Below, piece by piece: positions 7,666 through 47,815 of a stretch of 64,000 bases of DNA. Source of the DNA: Escherichia phage AnYang. The stretch's first letter is position 1. Each line of letters starts with the position of its first letter. The DNA lies in sequence record MK234886; one strand, given 5' to 3'. Under the pieces are notes generated by a model. That model saw only the letters and a list, made by a program, of their open reading frames with translations, did not search any database and was not told the DNA's origin. Position numbers and translations under genes: made by a program.

Positions 7666-9225
7666 ATGAAAAAGAATGCATTAGTTCAAAAATGGTCCGC
7701 TCTGCTGGAAAACGAAGCCCTTCCTGAAATCGTGGGTGCTTCTAAACAAGCTATCATCGCTAAAATTTTCGAAAATCAGGAACAAGACATCCTGACTGCC
7801 CCGGAATACCGTGATGAAAAAATCTCCGAAGCATTTGGTTCTTTCCTGACCGAAGCTGAAATTGGTGGTGACCACGGTTATGATGCTACCAATATCGCAG
7901 CTGGCCAGACTTCTGGTGCTGTAACTCAGATTGGGCCGGCAGTAATGGGTATGGTTCGTCGTGCTATTCCTCATCTGATTGCTTTTGATATTTGTGGTGT
8001 TCAGCCTCTGAATAACCCTACCGGCCAGGTATTTGCCCTTCGTGCAGTTTATGGTAAAGACCCTATCGCTTCTGGCGCTAAAGAAGCTTTCCATCCGATG
8101 TATTCTCCAGACGCTATGTTCTCTGGTCAGGGTGCTGCTGAATCTTTCGAAGCACTGGCTGCAAGCAAAGTTCTGGAAGTTGGTAAAATTTATTCTCACT
8201 TCTTCGAAGCTACCGGTGCTGCACACTTCCAGGCTGTTGAAGCTGTAACCGTTGATGCAGGCGCTACTGATGCCGCTAAACTGGATGCTGCTGTTACCGC
8301 GTTGATTGAAGCTGGTAAGTTGGCTGAATTGGCTGAAGGTATGGCTACTTCTATCGCTGAACTTCAGGAAGGCTTTAACGGTTCTACCGATAACCCGTGG
8401 AACGAAATGGGCTTCCGCATCGACAAACAAGTTATCGAAGCTAAATCCCGTCAGCTGAAAGCAAGCTACTCTATCGAACTGGCACAGGACCTTCGTGCAG
8501 TACACGGTATGGATGCAGATGCTGAACTGTCCGGTATCCTTGCTACCGAAATTATGCTCGAAATCAACCGTGAAGTTATCGATTGGATTAACTACTCTGC
8601 ACAGGTTGGTAAATCTGGTATGACCAACACCGTTGGCGCTAAAGCTGGTGTGTTTGACTTCCAGGACCCGATTGATATCCGTGGTGCTCGTTGGGCCGGT
8701 GAGAGCTTTAAAGCCCTTCTGTTCCAGATTGATAAAGAAGCAGCCGAAATCGCTCGTCAGACCGGTCGTGGTGCTGGTAACTTCATCATCGCTTCCCGTA
8801 ACGTAGTTAACGTACTGGCTGCAGTTGATACTTCTGTAAGTTATGCAGCTCAAGGTCTGGGTCAAGGTTTCAACGTTGACACAACCAAAGCAGTATTTGC
8901 CGGTGTTCTTGGTGGTAAATATCGCGTTTACATCGACCAGTATGCACGTTCCGATTACTTCACCATCGGTTATAAAGGCGCTAACGAAATGGACGCAGGT
9001 ATCTACTATGCTCCGTACGTTGCACTGACCCCGCTGCGTGGTTCCGATCCGAAGAACTTCCAACCGGTAATGGGCTTCAAAACTCGTTACGGTATCGGTA
9101 TCAACCCGTTCGCTGACCCGTCTGCACAGGCTCCTACCAAACGTATTCAGAGCGGTATGCCTGACATCGTTAACAGCCTTGGTCTGAATGGTTACTTCCG
9201 TCGCGTATATGTTAAAGGTATCTAA
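7666..9225 (+). CDS. 23: Major capsid protein gp23
   Basis: 519 aa; long identical runs to T4 gp23 (GSFLTEAEIGGDHGY, TQIGPAVMGMVRRAIP, GSDPKNFQPVMGFKTRYGIGINPFA, FRRVYVKGI). Confidence 0.97.
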   Translation: MKKNALVQKWSALLENEALPEIVGASKQAIIAKIFENQEQDILTAPEYRDEKISEAFGSFLTEAEIGGDHGYDATNIAAGQTSGAVTQIGPAVMGMVRRAIPHLIAFDICGVQPLNNPTGQVFALRAVYGKDPIASGAKEAFHPMYSPDAMFSGQGAAESFEALAASKVLEVGKIYSHFFEATGAAHFQAVEAVTVDAGATDAAKLDAAVTALIEAGKLAELAEGMATSIAELQEGFNGSTDNPWNEMGFRIDKQVIEAKSRQLKASYSIELAQDLRAVHGMDADAELSGILATEIMLEINREVIDWINYSAQVGKSGMTNTVGAKAGVFDFQDPIDIRGARWAGESFKALLFQIDKEAAEIARQTGRGAGNFIIASRNVVNVLAAVDTSVSYAAQGLGQGFNVDTTKAVFAGVLGGKYRVYIDQYARSDYFTIGYKGANEMDAGIYYAPYVALTPLRGSDPKNFQPVMGFKTRYGIGINPFADPSAQAPTKRIQSGMPDIVNSLGLNGYFRRVYVKGI

Positions 9226-9240
9226 GATATAACCTTATTA

Positions 9241-9268
9241 TGGGAGACTTCGGTCTCCCATTCTTGTT
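9241..9268 (+). terminator. Rho-independent terminator after gene 23
   Basis: Hairpin TGGGAGAC-ttcg-GTCTCCCA followed by a T-rich run, directly after the gp23 stop. Confidence 0.7.
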
Positions 9269-9274
9269 TCTGTA

Positions 9275-9541
9275 CTATGCAATCTTAACTCGTCGATTGA
9301 TGATATCACGGAAGTCAATACGATTTTCTTGGATTTTCAGCCAGTTACCAGATTTGTCTTTGGTATGGGTAGAGTATTCACCGTTCCACCAGAAGTCAGT
9401 TTCATAAGCTAGGGCTTCGTATTTCTTAACCAATGCATTAACTGCATTACCGTTAGGATTGGTACCAAATTTTTCTACCAGAGCTTTGATGTCTTTGTCA
9501 AGGTTAGAAAGCGTGGTACGGATAAAGTTTAATTTGTTCAT
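9275..9541 (-). CDS. Hypothetical small protein (about 88 aa) between genes 23 and 24, opposite strand
   Basis: ORF with a GAGGAG RBS 7 nt upstream of the ATG at 9541; Trp-rich; T4 carries an unrelated insert (segD) at this position; no recognised homolog. Confidence 0.5.
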   Translation of the reverse strand: MNKLNFIRTTLSNLDKDIKALVEKFGTNPNGNAVNALVKKYEALAYETDFWWNGEYSTHTKDKSGNWLKIQENRIDFRDIINRRVKIA

Positions 9542-9568
9542 TTTTAATCTCCTCATGTTTTGATAGGT

Positions 9569-9600
9569 CTATAGTAACACGACGCTTTTTGTGTGTAAAC
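9569..9600 (-). promoter_or_regulatory. T4-type early (sigma70-like) promoter for the 9275-9541 ORF
   Basis: On the minus strand: GTTTACA, 14 nt spacer, TGtTACTAT (extended -10); one of six near-identical copies of this motif in the window. Confidence 0.5.
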
Positions 9601-9606
9601 CACTTT

Positions 9607-9614
9607 TATAAATA
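9607..9614 (+). promoter_or_regulatory. Late promoter box TATAAATA upstream of gene 24
   Basis: Exact TATAAATA about 30 nt upstream of the gp24 ATG. Confidence 0.6.
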
Positions 9615-9643: not shown

Positions 9644-10924
9644 ATGGCTAAAATTAACGACCTTTTAAAAGAGTCGACCACTACTTCGAGTTCTTCGATT
9701 GGTCGTCCAAATTTAGTAGCTTTAACCAGAGCTACGACCAAACTGATTTATACCGACCTTGTAGCTCAGCAGCGTACTAACCAACCTTTGGCTGCTCTAT
9801 ATGGTATCAAATATCTTACAGAAAAAAACGAATTATCTTTCCAGACAGGTGCTACTTATTCTGGTGCAGTATCCGCTAAAGACCGTGCCTCTATCCCAGT
9901 TTTCACTGCAGGTGCTGTTTACGCTAAAGATGATTTGTTCCAATTTGAAAACGTAGTTTATAAAGCTTTGGTAGCAACACCATTTGCAGGTGCTACTGGC
10001 GATGAATACGAACAACTTCAAGAAGCTATTGTTAAGTTGACTATTCGTATTATGTCCGAAGCCGCACTGACTGAGCGTTTTGAAGGCCTCCAGGATGTAG
10101 ATGTTTCTGAAGCCAAATTCGTCGTTAATAAATGGAACGCTCCAGTTAAATCCCGTAAGTTGAAGAGTACTGTTACTGTAGAACTGGCTCAAGACCTCGA
10201 AGCAAATGGTTTCGATGCCCCTAATTTCTTGGAAGACCTCCTGGCTACTGAAATGGCTGATGAAATCAACAAAGATATTCTTCAGTCCCTGGTTACGGTT
10301 TCCAAGCGTTATAAAGTTGAAGGTTTGTGTGATGACGGCTTAATTGACCTGAGTTATGCTAACTCACCGGAAGCTTCTCGCAAGCTTTATGAAATAGTTT
10401 GTGAAATGGTTTCTCATATCCAGCGCGCAACCTCTTATACAGCAACTTATGTAGTAGCGAGTACTCGCGTAGCCGCTGTTCTGGCTGGTTCTGGCTGGTT
10501 AAGACATACCCCACAGAACGATAAATATCTTTCTGCAAATGCATACGGATTCCTGGAAAATGGTTTGCCAGTGTATTGTGATACCAACACGCCAATTGAT
10601 TATGTTACTGTAGGTGTTAAAGAGGAATTTGGTGGGAAAGAAGCGGTAGGTTCTTTGTTCTATGCGCCGTATACAGAAGGCCTTGATTTGGCTGACCCTG
10701 AACATGTGGGTACATTTAAAGTGGTCGTTGACCCTGAAAGCCTGCAACCATCTATTGCATTAATGGTTCGTTATGCACTGGCTGCTAACCCTTATACGGT
10801 TACTTCTGATGATAAACAAGCCCGTATTATTGATGCGACTAATATGGATTTGATGGCGGGACGTTCTGATATGTCCGTATTGCTTGGTGTGAAACTTCCT
10901 AAAGTTTTGACTGAATTAAACTAA
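9644..10924 (+). CDS. 24: Capsid vertex protein gp24
   Basis: MAKINDLLKESTTTSSSSIGRPNLVALTRATTKLIY... and ELAQDLEANGFDAPNFLEDLLATEMADEINKDILQS nearly identical to T4 gp24. Confidence 0.95.
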   Translation: MAKINDLLKESTTTSSSSIGRPNLVALTRATTKLIYTDLVAQQRTNQPLAALYGIKYLTEKNELSFQTGATYSGAVSAKDRASIPVFTAGAVYAKDDLFQFENVVYKALVATPFAGATGDEYEQLQEAIVKLTIRIMSEAALTERFEGLQDVDVSEAKFVVNKWNAPVKSRKLKSTVTVELAQDLEANGFDAPNFLEDLLATEMADEINKDILQSLVTVSKRYKVEGLCDDGLIDLSYANSPEASRKLYEIVCEMVSHIQRATSYTATYVVASTRVAAVLAGSGWLRHTPQNDKYLSANAYGFLENGLPVYCDTNTPIDYVTVGVKEEFGGKEAVGSLFYAPYTEGLDLADPEHVGTFKVVVDPESLQPSIALMVRYALAANPYTVTSDDKQARIIDATNMDLMAGRSDMSVLLGVKLPKVLTELN

Positions 10925-12286: not shown

Positions 12287-12370
12287 AACAATTCTCTCGT
12301 TGAGTTGGTAAACCCATCTTAACATAGGATTTTTAACTTGTAAACAGGAATTTTGTACTTTAATGCAAAA

Positions 12371-24101: not shown

Positions 24102-24158
24102 AATGTTCTCCTCATGTTTGTGTAAGGTAATAGTACCACATCCTTGTGGTGTTGTAAA

Positions 24159-26282
24159 CTACATTTTGAATTTATTTGGTAGAGCAGAGATATCCAAAGA
24201 TGCCGCTAAGATTTCCATAGCCTCGTTGCTTTCAGAAACAGATTCACTAACCAAGAACTGTTTAAAGCCATCCATCGGACGAACTTCACCGGTTTCCATC
24301 AAATGGTCGCCATCGTAAACAGATTCACTGAGCTCTGAAGGAGACATCACTGTAGCTTCCATAAGGTATTTGTGAGATACCCTATCATTCATAGCAAAAG
24401 CCGCTACTTTATCGACCTTCATCAATAATCCGCGCGGAAGGATAATTTCTGCTTCTTCAGCGTATTCTGTAAGGTCACCTGGAGCGATAACTTTAACTGC
24501 TTCAGCACCTCGAATAACCATACCAATTTCAGCAATTCTATCCGCAGGGCCTTCAGGTGCAATTGGATTACCAAACTCGTCTTCTTCCCATTCTACCTCT
24601 TCGTCATCGACTTCACCCACATCAGATGAACTACCACTAGCCAATTTAAACAACTCATCAGCGGAGGATAAAGAACCTTCACCACCAACAAAAACGGCTT
24701 GGTTGTCGAGGGCCATATAATTTTTACCGAATTCACCAAAGATGTTAGGTTTTAGTGAGGCAGATACAAAGTTCTTAAAGTAAAATGTTTTGTTATCAAT
24801 ATTATGGCGCAGAATTTTGTATGGCAAATCCTGACCACGATACAAAATAGTACCCTTAGGAAGTTTAATACCCTTAGTAAATGCTGAGTCTAAATCCTTA
24901 ATCAATTTAATAGCCGTTGTATTGTTTTCGGATTCAGGTTTACCTAAAAGGAATAAGTTCATAGGAGCATATTCAGCAGCGCAATATTCAATAATAGCAT
25001 TGCTTTCATCTTTGGTTAGGTCCTTAGGTTTAATGAGCTCACCTGAATAAGCATATGCATCACTAATAGAATCGTTAATTAGTTTATAAACGGCTTCCAT
25101 AGCGAAAGCAATTCGGGATGCTTTCTCTGAAGGGGAGCCTTTAAAACGGGTACTCAGGTTATTAACAATTTTCTTAATAATATCCAGACTATTGGTTGTA
25201 TTGATTTGCGAAAGGCCGCTTAAAAGTCTATCGACTTCTGTATTAAAAAATGCCATATTTTTAGAGTAAATTTCAAACCCTTGTTTATCTCTATTAGCAT
25301 AATTTAGTTTAAATTTACTATCAGTCATTAAAGCGTGCGTGAGAGCAATGGTGTATCTAAAGTTGGCAAGGTCCTCGCTCTTAGATTTAAACTGAGAAGC
25401 CTGGCGCATTTTGGTAATAGCACCTTTTTTAAAGTTCTGACTAATCTGCTCAATACCTTCGTTCTCAGGGCCTTCGGCAGTGTGAACCGGCACAGAAGCT
25501 TCAAACTCATTATAAACCTGCAATTCTTTAGGGGACAAAGTTTCAGGCTCAGCAGTAGAATACTGTGCGGCTGCTGCCATACGACGGGAAATCTTAGTAC
25601 GAGTAATAACAGCCTTATCAGTACGTTTCTCTTCAACCTTAGCAATACTTGCCGAGACGGCTTCGACCTTACTTACAGACTGACCTGTTTTCTTGGATAC
25701 ATAAACTTCGCCGACTTTAGAATCGACTTTGGTATAAAGGTCAGCATCAATTTCGGGCATACCTTTGATATCTTCAATATTAGTACCACGACGTACTAAA
25801 AGAACGTAGGTATGTTTACCACTGAATTGGAACATATCATCGACAACTTTAAACTTACCACCGGTACGGGCCATCGCCAAACGTGCCAATACCCGCTGAA
25901 CAGTAGGGCCTTTACCTTTCATTTTCTTGGTAGGAAAACGGAATAAAACCGCATCCATTTTAAGTTTGTTTACTTGTTCGTATGCAGTATCAAAAATGGT
26001 ATTCAGCGTACCGAGTGGATCGGTACCCAAACCACCTTTGAGTTCTGCCGGAGCGCCTTTAGCAGACAAACTCATTAAGATGACATGGACGTACTTATCG
26101 CCTGGCTTAACCATTTTAATAGCATCGCCTTCAGACGCGTATGAAACCATACGCGCCACTAAATTGTCATTACCAGGAGCATGAACCGCAAAAATCTGCG
26201 GTATGCCCGAGCCAGGTTTAAGATTTGTTACTGGGTAATTTTTTTTATCACTTTTATCAAAAACTTCGTTTAAATTTTCCAT
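24159..26282 (-). CDS. alt: Alt-like ADP-ribosyltransferase, paralog 1 (most downstream)
   Basis: 707 aa; conserved Alt N-terminal region and C-terminal ART motifs (YRGQ, FYFKNFVSASL, EIILPRGLLMKVDKV); N-terminal ~240 aa nearly identical to paralog 2. Confidence 0.85.
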   Translation of the reverse strand: MENLNEVFDKSDKKNYPVTNLKPGSGIPQIFAVHAPGNDNLVARMVSYASEGDAIKMVKPGDKYVHVILMSLSAKGAPAELKGGLGTDPLGTLNTIFDTAYEQVNKLKMDAVLFRFPTKKMKGKGPTVQRVLARLAMARTGGKFKVVDDMFQFSGKHTYVLLVRRGTNIEDIKGMPEIDADLYTKVDSKVGEVYVSKKTGQSVSKVEAVSASIAKVEEKRTDKAVITRTKISRRMAAAAQYSTAEPETLSPKELQVYNEFEASVPVHTAEGPENEGIEQISQNFKKGAITKMRQASQFKSKSEDLANFRYTIALTHALMTDSKFKLNYANRDKQGFEIYSKNMAFFNTEVDRLLSGLSQINTTNSLDIIKKIVNNLSTRFKGSPSEKASRIAFAMEAVYKLINDSISDAYAYSGELIKPKDLTKDESNAIIEYCAAEYAPMNLFLLGKPESENNTTAIKLIKDLDSAFTKGIKLPKGTILYRGQDLPYKILRHNIDNKTFYFKNFVSASLKPNIFGEFGKNYMALDNQAVFVGGEGSLSSADELFKLASGSSSDVGEVDDEEVEWEEDEFGNPIAPEGPADRIAEIGMVIRGAEAVKVIAPGDLTEYAEEAEIILPRGLLMKVDKVAAFAMNDRVSHKYLMEATVMSPSELSESVYDGDHLMETGEVRPMDGFKQFLVSESVSESNEAMEILAASLDISALPNKFKM

Positions 26283-37546: not shown

Positions 37547-37613
37547 TTCGATTTCCTCATTTGTTTCGGTAAGGTCATCATATCACCGTCCTTGGTGAAA
37601 GTAAACACCTTTT

Positions 37614-47783: not shown

Positions 47784-47815
47784 CTATAGTATCACTACCA
47801 TAGCCTGGTGTAAAC
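47784..47815 (-). promoter_or_regulatory. T4-type early promoter upstream of the frd.1-like gene
   Basis: Minus strand: GTTTACA, spacer, TGaTACTATAG, then TTATCAACTAAGGAG and the ATG. Confidence 0.5.

Follow-up and report, generated by a model that had tools for sequence, protein, structure and literature searches.

A minus-strand accessory gene with a putative early promoter in the gene 23–24 slot of Dhakavirus and related T-even phages

The 64,000-nt stretch of the Escherichia phage AnYang record MK234886 that we analysed as a whole (hereafter the window) comes from a Dhakavirus (Tevenvirinae) with Escherichia phage C6 and JS10 as nearest relatives; between genes 23 and 24 its sequence is 99.3% identical to that of phage C6, likewise a Dhakavirus of the Tevenvirinae. 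On the plus strand the genes for gp21, gp22, gp23 and gp24 follow one another (ORF listing, C6 annotation), and the minus-strand genes of the neighbourhood are rnlB, a 24.2/24.3-like ORF and hoc. For the spacer between gp23 and gp24, an earlier note made from the sequence alone had described a minus-strand ORF of 88 aa with a strong ribosome binding site, GAGGAG. Both are present: the ORF is found in the sequence as well as in the ORF listing, and the GAGGAG motif was confirmed 7 nt 5' of its ATG. Table 1 lists the features of the region. Downstream of the slot the window has a single gp24 gene, as does C6. Its allele recurs in phage 005 (L009) with 99.8% amino acid identity, and the gp24 proteins of other Dhakavirus, Mosigvirus and Gaprivervirus phages are only about 68–70% identical to it; gp23, by contrast, is 96–99% identical within Dhakavirus and Gaprivervirus. 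Two tandem gp24 paralogues occur in IME08, VR7 and two metagenomic relatives (L007, L004, L018, L022).

Table 1. Features between and around genes 23 and 24, in positions of the window
Feature	Position	Strand	Basis or remark
gp23, major capsid protein (left flank, late gene)	7666..9225	+	ORF listing, C6 annotation
9-bp GC-rich hairpin, common to both converging units	9240..9261	both	Terminator scan and RNA fold
3' end of the ORF and bases just beyond	9263..9289	-	Place of the segD-type insertion in relatives (junction alignment)
88-aa ORF (PHROG 6003)	9275..9541	-	ATG 9541-9539, stop TAG 9277-9275
Shine-Dalgarno sequence GAGGAG	9549..9554	-	7 nt upstream of the ATG; direct reading
Putative T4-type early (sigma-70) promoter	9571..9600	-	GTTTACA 9600-9594, 14-nt spacer, extended -10 TGTTACTAT 9579-9571
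gp24 late promoter TATAAATA	9607..9614	+	Direct reading; back to back with the early -35 element
gp24, capsid vertex protein (right flank, late gene, single copy)	9644..10924	+	ORF listing, C6 annotation

As judged from its conservation, the ORF is almost certainly a real protein gene. The earlier note had named its absence from all related genomes as grounds for giving the gene up; a tblastn search found it in 129 phage records. The translated protein matches PHROG 6003 over its entire length (E = 2.2e-49, 166 bits, residues 1–88 against profile positions 1–88 of 90) and is 100% identical to JS10 EpJS10_0170, C6 QVW28328.1 and the KIT01 and MX01 proteins, every one of them entered as 'hypothetical protein'. 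JS98 ORF173c, VR7ORF190c and IME08 gp166, like EpJS10_0170, represent the same PHROG 6003 gene in the same slot, on the same strand and of the same length. Since the family already exists and over 100 genomes have its gene entered as hypothetical, the ORF is not newly seen; gene, family and, in the case of RB69, promoter are in the public records as hypothetical or predicted entries. In all 15 loci of the alignment used for dN/dS the frame is intact, and the Nei-Gojobori ratios are 0.04–0.09 in five close pairs and 0.08–0.31 in the more distant pairs with estimable dS. From these substitution ratios we conclude that strong purifying selection acts on the protein within lineages; between lineages keeping the same slot, protein identity falls to 28–35%. 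The start codon is conserved across the lineages aligned, and in all of them GGAG is kept ahead of it. A 93-aa product, which the ORF listing gives from the in-frame ATG at 9556, was considered and rejected: divergent homologues have no such ATG, and in the window it overlaps with the Shine-Dalgarno motif; the 88-aa form is therefore taken as the real product.

The predicted protein of about 10.3 kDa is basic (pI 9.5) and hydrophilic (GRAVY -0.71). AlphaFold2, supplied with an alignment of 10 sequences, gave a model with a pLDDT of 93 and a pTM of 0.78, consisting of a helix (residues 3–25), a second helix (31–48), a beta-hairpin (52–61 and 67–71) and a C-terminal helix (77–87); the residues invariant in the family are K3, F6, L21, N30-G31-N32, N35, A45 and Q71. 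The BFVD model of a 41%-identical homologue from ABPH49 superposes on it at TM 0.91, and apart from this member of the protein's own family the BFVD structure search returned no match. The statement of the earlier note that no domain can be recognised stands: Pfam yielded nothing save DUF5380 at E = 0.12, below the family cut-off and with near-identical family members only; NCBIfam gave noise; and the PDB sequence profile search found de novo three-helix designs at E 0.1 or worse and nothing else. With a first model (pLDDT 75), Foldseek against the PDB gave nothing below E = 0.8. The profile and structure searches that the note had proposed thus led back to the protein's own family. A word-indexed search of 5.8 billion proteins produced seven matches, all of them close family, and a profile search of 1.84 billion representatives produced 12 proteins at E <= 0.001, four of which are further full-length family members. 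The remaining profile matches comprise a truncated copy, an apparent chimera and long proteins matched in multiple stretches, which we read as low-complexity matches. In the apparent chimera, a 160-aa metagenomic protein (P0010), residues 122–155 are a near-exact fragment of the family fused to an unrelated N-terminal sequence; it is most likely an assembly artefact of this kind rather than a real fusion. IMG/VR contributed 9 loci, and the source names of six clusters read 'hypothetical', except for one evidently spurious automatic 'curcumin reductase'. Within the 64-kb window the ORF has no paralogue. On these searches the protein is an orphan, its confident model having no informative relative in structure or sequence. 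Its shortness (88 aa) and the missing domain match are what one would also expect of an open frame that arose by chance in an AT-rich spacer, a reading to which we assign next to no probability: it is refuted by the conservation data (the low dN/dS of the close pairs, the PHROG match at E = 2e-49, the 129 records) and is likewise at odds with a confident fold that is reproduced independently in the model of a distant homologue.

Upstream of the ORF, the element GTTTACA-N14-TGTTACTAT was found exactly as the earlier note had given it. In the promoter scan it appears as TTTACA-N17-TACTAT with a TG extension; its 3' edge lies 29 nt ahead of the ORF ATG, and transcription is predicted to start near 9564. 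We aligned this element across ten lineages (the window, KAW3E185, IME08, L009, L013, AV112, two metagenomic T4-likes, VR7 and T4). Nine of the ten have TTTACA and nine of the ten have TG, with a -10 consensus of TA.TAT, whereas the spacer varies freely, no consensus base reaching 7/10 at any of its first 12 positions. The sequence agrees with the GTTTAC early-promoter consensus of Nolan et al. 2006 (PMC1524935), and at the homologous position of RB69 the same authors predicted an early promoter on the minus strand, Pe:109605 (score 29.9), beside the plus-strand late promoter Pl:109573. A search of the whole window for GTTTAC-N15-TGNTANNAT, allowing up to one mismatch, gave five matches, four of them exact and all on the minus strand; 0.66 would be expected, and none of 100 shuffles reached five. 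The other four matches (three exact) lie at 12316-12345, 24130-24159, 37577-37606 and 47786-47815 of the minus strand, that at 12345-12316 immediately preceding the 24.2-like small ORF and rnlB. In the Tequatrovirus fPS-2, whose slot is empty, the element was not found, and there the late promoter leads straight into the terminator hairpin. The conserved hexamers, the variable spacer and the RB69 prediction support the note's view of an early-promoter-driven minus-strand gene. The element looks functional on these comparative grounds, and it is very likely that the ORF has its own early promoter. Early transcription is suggested by the type of promoter and, by analogy, by the expression of T4 segD described below.

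The gp24 late promoter is kept as TATTTATA (read on the ORF-sense strand) in all lineages aligned. The note's claim that it overlaps the early-promoter region is true of the upstream A-rich part only; the late promoter abuts the core of the early promoter, because it lies 6 nt beyond the -35 element. At its other end the cassette runs into the hairpin that it shares with gp23. On the plus strand, the only one on which the terminator scan scored it, this hairpin is a canonical gp23 terminator with a T-rich tail. The minus-strand hairpin also forms (-20 kcal/mol, z = -3.3 in the RNA fold), and its tail, AUAAUAAGG, has no U-tract; read-through antisense to gene 23 would therefore be possible in the window. 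In the VR7-type phages of Gaprivervirus (L004, L015–L017) an A-run precedes the hairpin and a T-run follows it, and for this reason the hairpin could be a bidirectional terminator there. An arrangement with converging units and two promoters back to back, 6 nt apart, might suggest that the unit acts at the RNA level, by interference with the gp24 late promoter or as antisense to the 3' end of gene 23, so as to time capsid expression with the peptide being incidental; the absence of a U-tract after the minus-strand hairpin of the window fits such a scheme. We nevertheless hold it to be very improbable. The low dN/dS together with the conserved Shine-Dalgarno sequence and start codon indicates that the protein is under selection; a VR7-type hairpin with T-runs on both sides would stop the read-through; in most Tequatroviruses genes 23 and 24 are expressed although the slot between them is empty and has no such promoter; and no Rfam family matches the region.

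The cassette does not follow its surroundings. When the window was compared with the Mosigvirus KAW3E185 in 100-nt bins, the ORF and promoter (9300-9599) were 97–99% identical at the nucleotide level, and the flanks 68–92% (gp23) and 50–83% (gp24). Conversely, the Mosigvirus AV112 has a gp23 with about 84% amino acid identity to that of the window, yet its ORF allele in the same slot is only 32% identical at the amino acid level; identities of 57% and 28% were measured for the alleles that occupy the 23–24 slot of two metagenomic T4-likes. Cassette identity set against flank identity, together with divergent alleles in one slot, argues for exchange independent of the flanks. More distant homologues (34–41% identity) are found in Vequintavirinae-like phages, where their neighbours are small genes of the same strand, grouped in blocks; no capsid gene lies within about 4 kb of them and no endonuclease gene was found beside them. 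One of these homologues has a TTGAAT-N17-TATTAT element of its own, and a hairpin follows both homologues. The gene is not kept everywhere. It is absent from Tequatrovirus, phage 310Ecol104PP has a frameshifted copy of 64 aa, and in RB69, where the homologous promoter also abuts the gene 24 late promoter, a copy of the AV112 type, about 32% identical to the intact window copy of the other class, is split by frameshifts in the same slot and on the same strand into RB69ORF188c and RB69ORF189c of 29 and 41 aa (RB69 109291-109531; 8292-8532 of locus L024). The RB69 halves are either a pseudogene or a product of sequencing errors in the 2003 record. Because of this absence and of the frameshifts in RB69 and 310Ecol104PP we regard the ORF as dispensable, and very likely it is a mobile accessory cassette, as far as the comparison of genomes can tell.

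These observations also bear on a possible role of the protein in head morphogenesis, e.g. as a factor made early that helps gp23 or gp24 to assemble or fold. Such a role would account for the retention of one slot, that between genes 23 and 24, in Dhakavirus, Mosigvirus, Gaprivervirus and the metagenomic T4-likes, even where the alleles are 28–57% identical. The chances of this explanation are slim, though, as the strand of the gene is opposite to that of its capsid-gene neighbours and its promoter is of the early type, Tequatrovirus lacks it, and the long-propagated laboratory phage RB69 has a frameshifted copy; moreover, the Vequintavirinae-like homologues sit among small same-strand genes at a distance from any capsid gene, and the ORF allele tracks neither the gp23 nor the gp24 allele.

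The earlier note had further proposed that T4 carries segD, unrelated to the ORF, at this position and that the slot accepts accessory genes. The first point is correct, the strand also being the same, and for the second our comparison of genomes revealed four states. Most Tequatrovirus and Klebsiella T4-likes have an empty slot (a span of 373 bp against 1102 bp in T4); the slot holds segD alone in T4, which lacks the small ORF (of 809 records matching the T4 query, only 53 cover at least 80% of it); the small ORF alone in the window, C6, JS98, VR7 and AV112; and the small ORF plus segD in KAW3E185 (Mosigvirus), IME08 (Dhakavirus), L009 and L012. Seg-type GIY-YIG endonucleases are proteins of ~220 aa with a GIY-YIG domain, and T4 SegD, with 224 aa and such a domain, is unrelated to the orphan, which has 88 aa and no Pfam match above the E = 0.1 cut-off. 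The SegD proteins of the relatives are separate ORFs: in some genomes of Mosigvirus and Dhakavirus the homologue stands downstream of the small ORF and not in its place as in T4. The SegD-like proteins of KAW3E185 (L002 2539-3198) and IME08 (L007 2771-3442) are 91% identical to each other, against only 57–59% when either is compared with T4 SegD. Both begin with MNYLIYK, which lines up with the second ATG of the T4 gene as annotated (MFKMKYLIYQ); this suggests that the start given for T4 segD may lie 3 codons too far 5'.

T4 segD has the same antisense orientation, and a strong promoter-like element homologous to that of the window lies upstream of it. This element, TTTACA-N17-TATTAT with TG, is located at 107281-107253 of the T4 minus strand (L026 854-882) and matches 10 of 12 consensus positions. 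Edgell et al. 2010 (PMC2988022) could not identify a segD-specific promoter in T4; in time-resolved omics data (PMC9697503, supplements 4–6), segD RNA is classed as early and SegD protein was detected. The conserved sigma-70 element is thus a candidate for the promoter of T4 segD.

Where ORF and segD occur together, segD starts 3 nt after the ORF stop on the same strand (…GCGTAAAATATG…), and in KAW3E185, IME08, L009 and L012 alike it has neither a promoter of its own nor a good Shine-Dalgarno sequence; it would therefore be co-transcribed with the ORF and weakly translated by coupling. Judging from this layout, segD is probably a second cistron of the ORF in some Mosigvirus and Dhakavirus phages. 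The last codons of the ORF are recoded in all four loci with segD, reading GTCAAAGCAGCGTAA instead of GTTAAGATTGCATAG. All seven segD-free loci of the same allele group lack this change, most of them ending in GTTAAGATTGCATAG and two having single-base variants; six further segD-free loci (VR7 type, AV112, P0008, P0017) have unrelated 3' ends. A recoded end of this kind is what one would expect if a homing endonuclease gene had inserted here and the flanking bases had been altered by co-conversion or for protection.

Taken to its extreme, this pattern would make the ORF mainly a leader cistron or landing site of a SegD homing unit, devoid of any host-directed function. The tight junction, with a segD lacking a promoter or good Shine-Dalgarno sequence of its own, and the recoded end common to all alleles with segD agree with such a reading, movement of the cassette between genera would be expected from co-conversion around an endonuclease gene, and T4 retains the promoter with segD alone. 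We consider it improbable, if less so than the RNA-level and head-assembly explanations above. In 13 of the 17 loci examined the ORF is present without segD, and it is intact throughout the dN/dS alignment; purifying selection covers the whole protein also between segD-free phages (window against L013 and L014); the Vequintavirinae-like homologues have no adjoining endonuclease gene; and T4 segD works in a slot that lacks the ORF.

We therefore return to the cassette as a gene unit in its own right. The classical definition of morons comes from temperate lambdoid phages, where they are expressed from the prophage. Like morons and like the small early accessory genes of T-even phages, the cassette has its own host-type promoter, is placed between conserved genes, evolves fast between lineages and is exchanged horizontally; patchy distribution, dispensability and flank-independent exchange were all found for it. 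Unlike classical morons, it belongs to a virulent phage and its expression presumably falls in the early part of lytic growth, and the terminator of its own strand is non-canonical in the window.

The likely overall explanation, in our view, is a self-contained antisense accessory cassette in the gp23–gp24 slot, with early expression and a host-directed function. It would consist of the early promoter, the Shine-Dalgarno sequence and the 88-codon ORF, and would end at the hairpin that also terminates gp23. Host RNA polymerase with unmodified sigma-70 would fire the promoter in the first minutes of infection, and the short mRNA starting near 9564 would yield a basic, soluble 10-kDa protein of three helices and a beta-hairpin. 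The unit of ORF plus promoter, roughly 300 bp in size, passes between phage genera. The protein itself may be a non-enzymatic, host-directed binder, active in host takeover or anti-defence and helpful on some hosts only. This part of the explanation is tentative and somewhat less than an even bet: it is argued by exclusion, from the lack of a catalytic signature and of relatives outside phages, and from the way in which small early T-even genes generally behave. In a secondary role the cassette would serve as landing site and expression unit for a SegD-type homing endonuclease, which the junction comparison shows in part. A bolder version, which we regard as rather doubtful, is that the ORF encodes an early effector of new fold that counteracts a host defence or subverts a host factor, that its alleles (28–99% identity) are turned over in an arms race, that co-conversion with SegD spreads them, and that the same conserved promoter is the one that could not be identified for T4 segD.

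For specialists the gene and its promoter come as no surprise, since both were already annotated or predicted. T-even phages keep their host-takeover and anti-defence functions chiefly in small early genes, most of which are uncharacterised. Among them this one offers a favourable experimental case, being a single, dispensable gene with what appears to be its own promoter and with natural knock-outs, and two very divergent allele classes occupy one fixed slot. The most useful by-products of the analysis are the candidate promoter of T4 segD and the ORF–segD junction as a possible homing site; the conserved sigma-70 element provides a testable explanation for the transcription of segD in the 23/24 slot. 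The data further suggest a way in which an accessory gene may be taken from one phage genus to another by an adjacent homing endonuclease. If the bolder version were true, favourable alleles would pass among T-even genera during co-infection with the help of SegD-type endonucleases.
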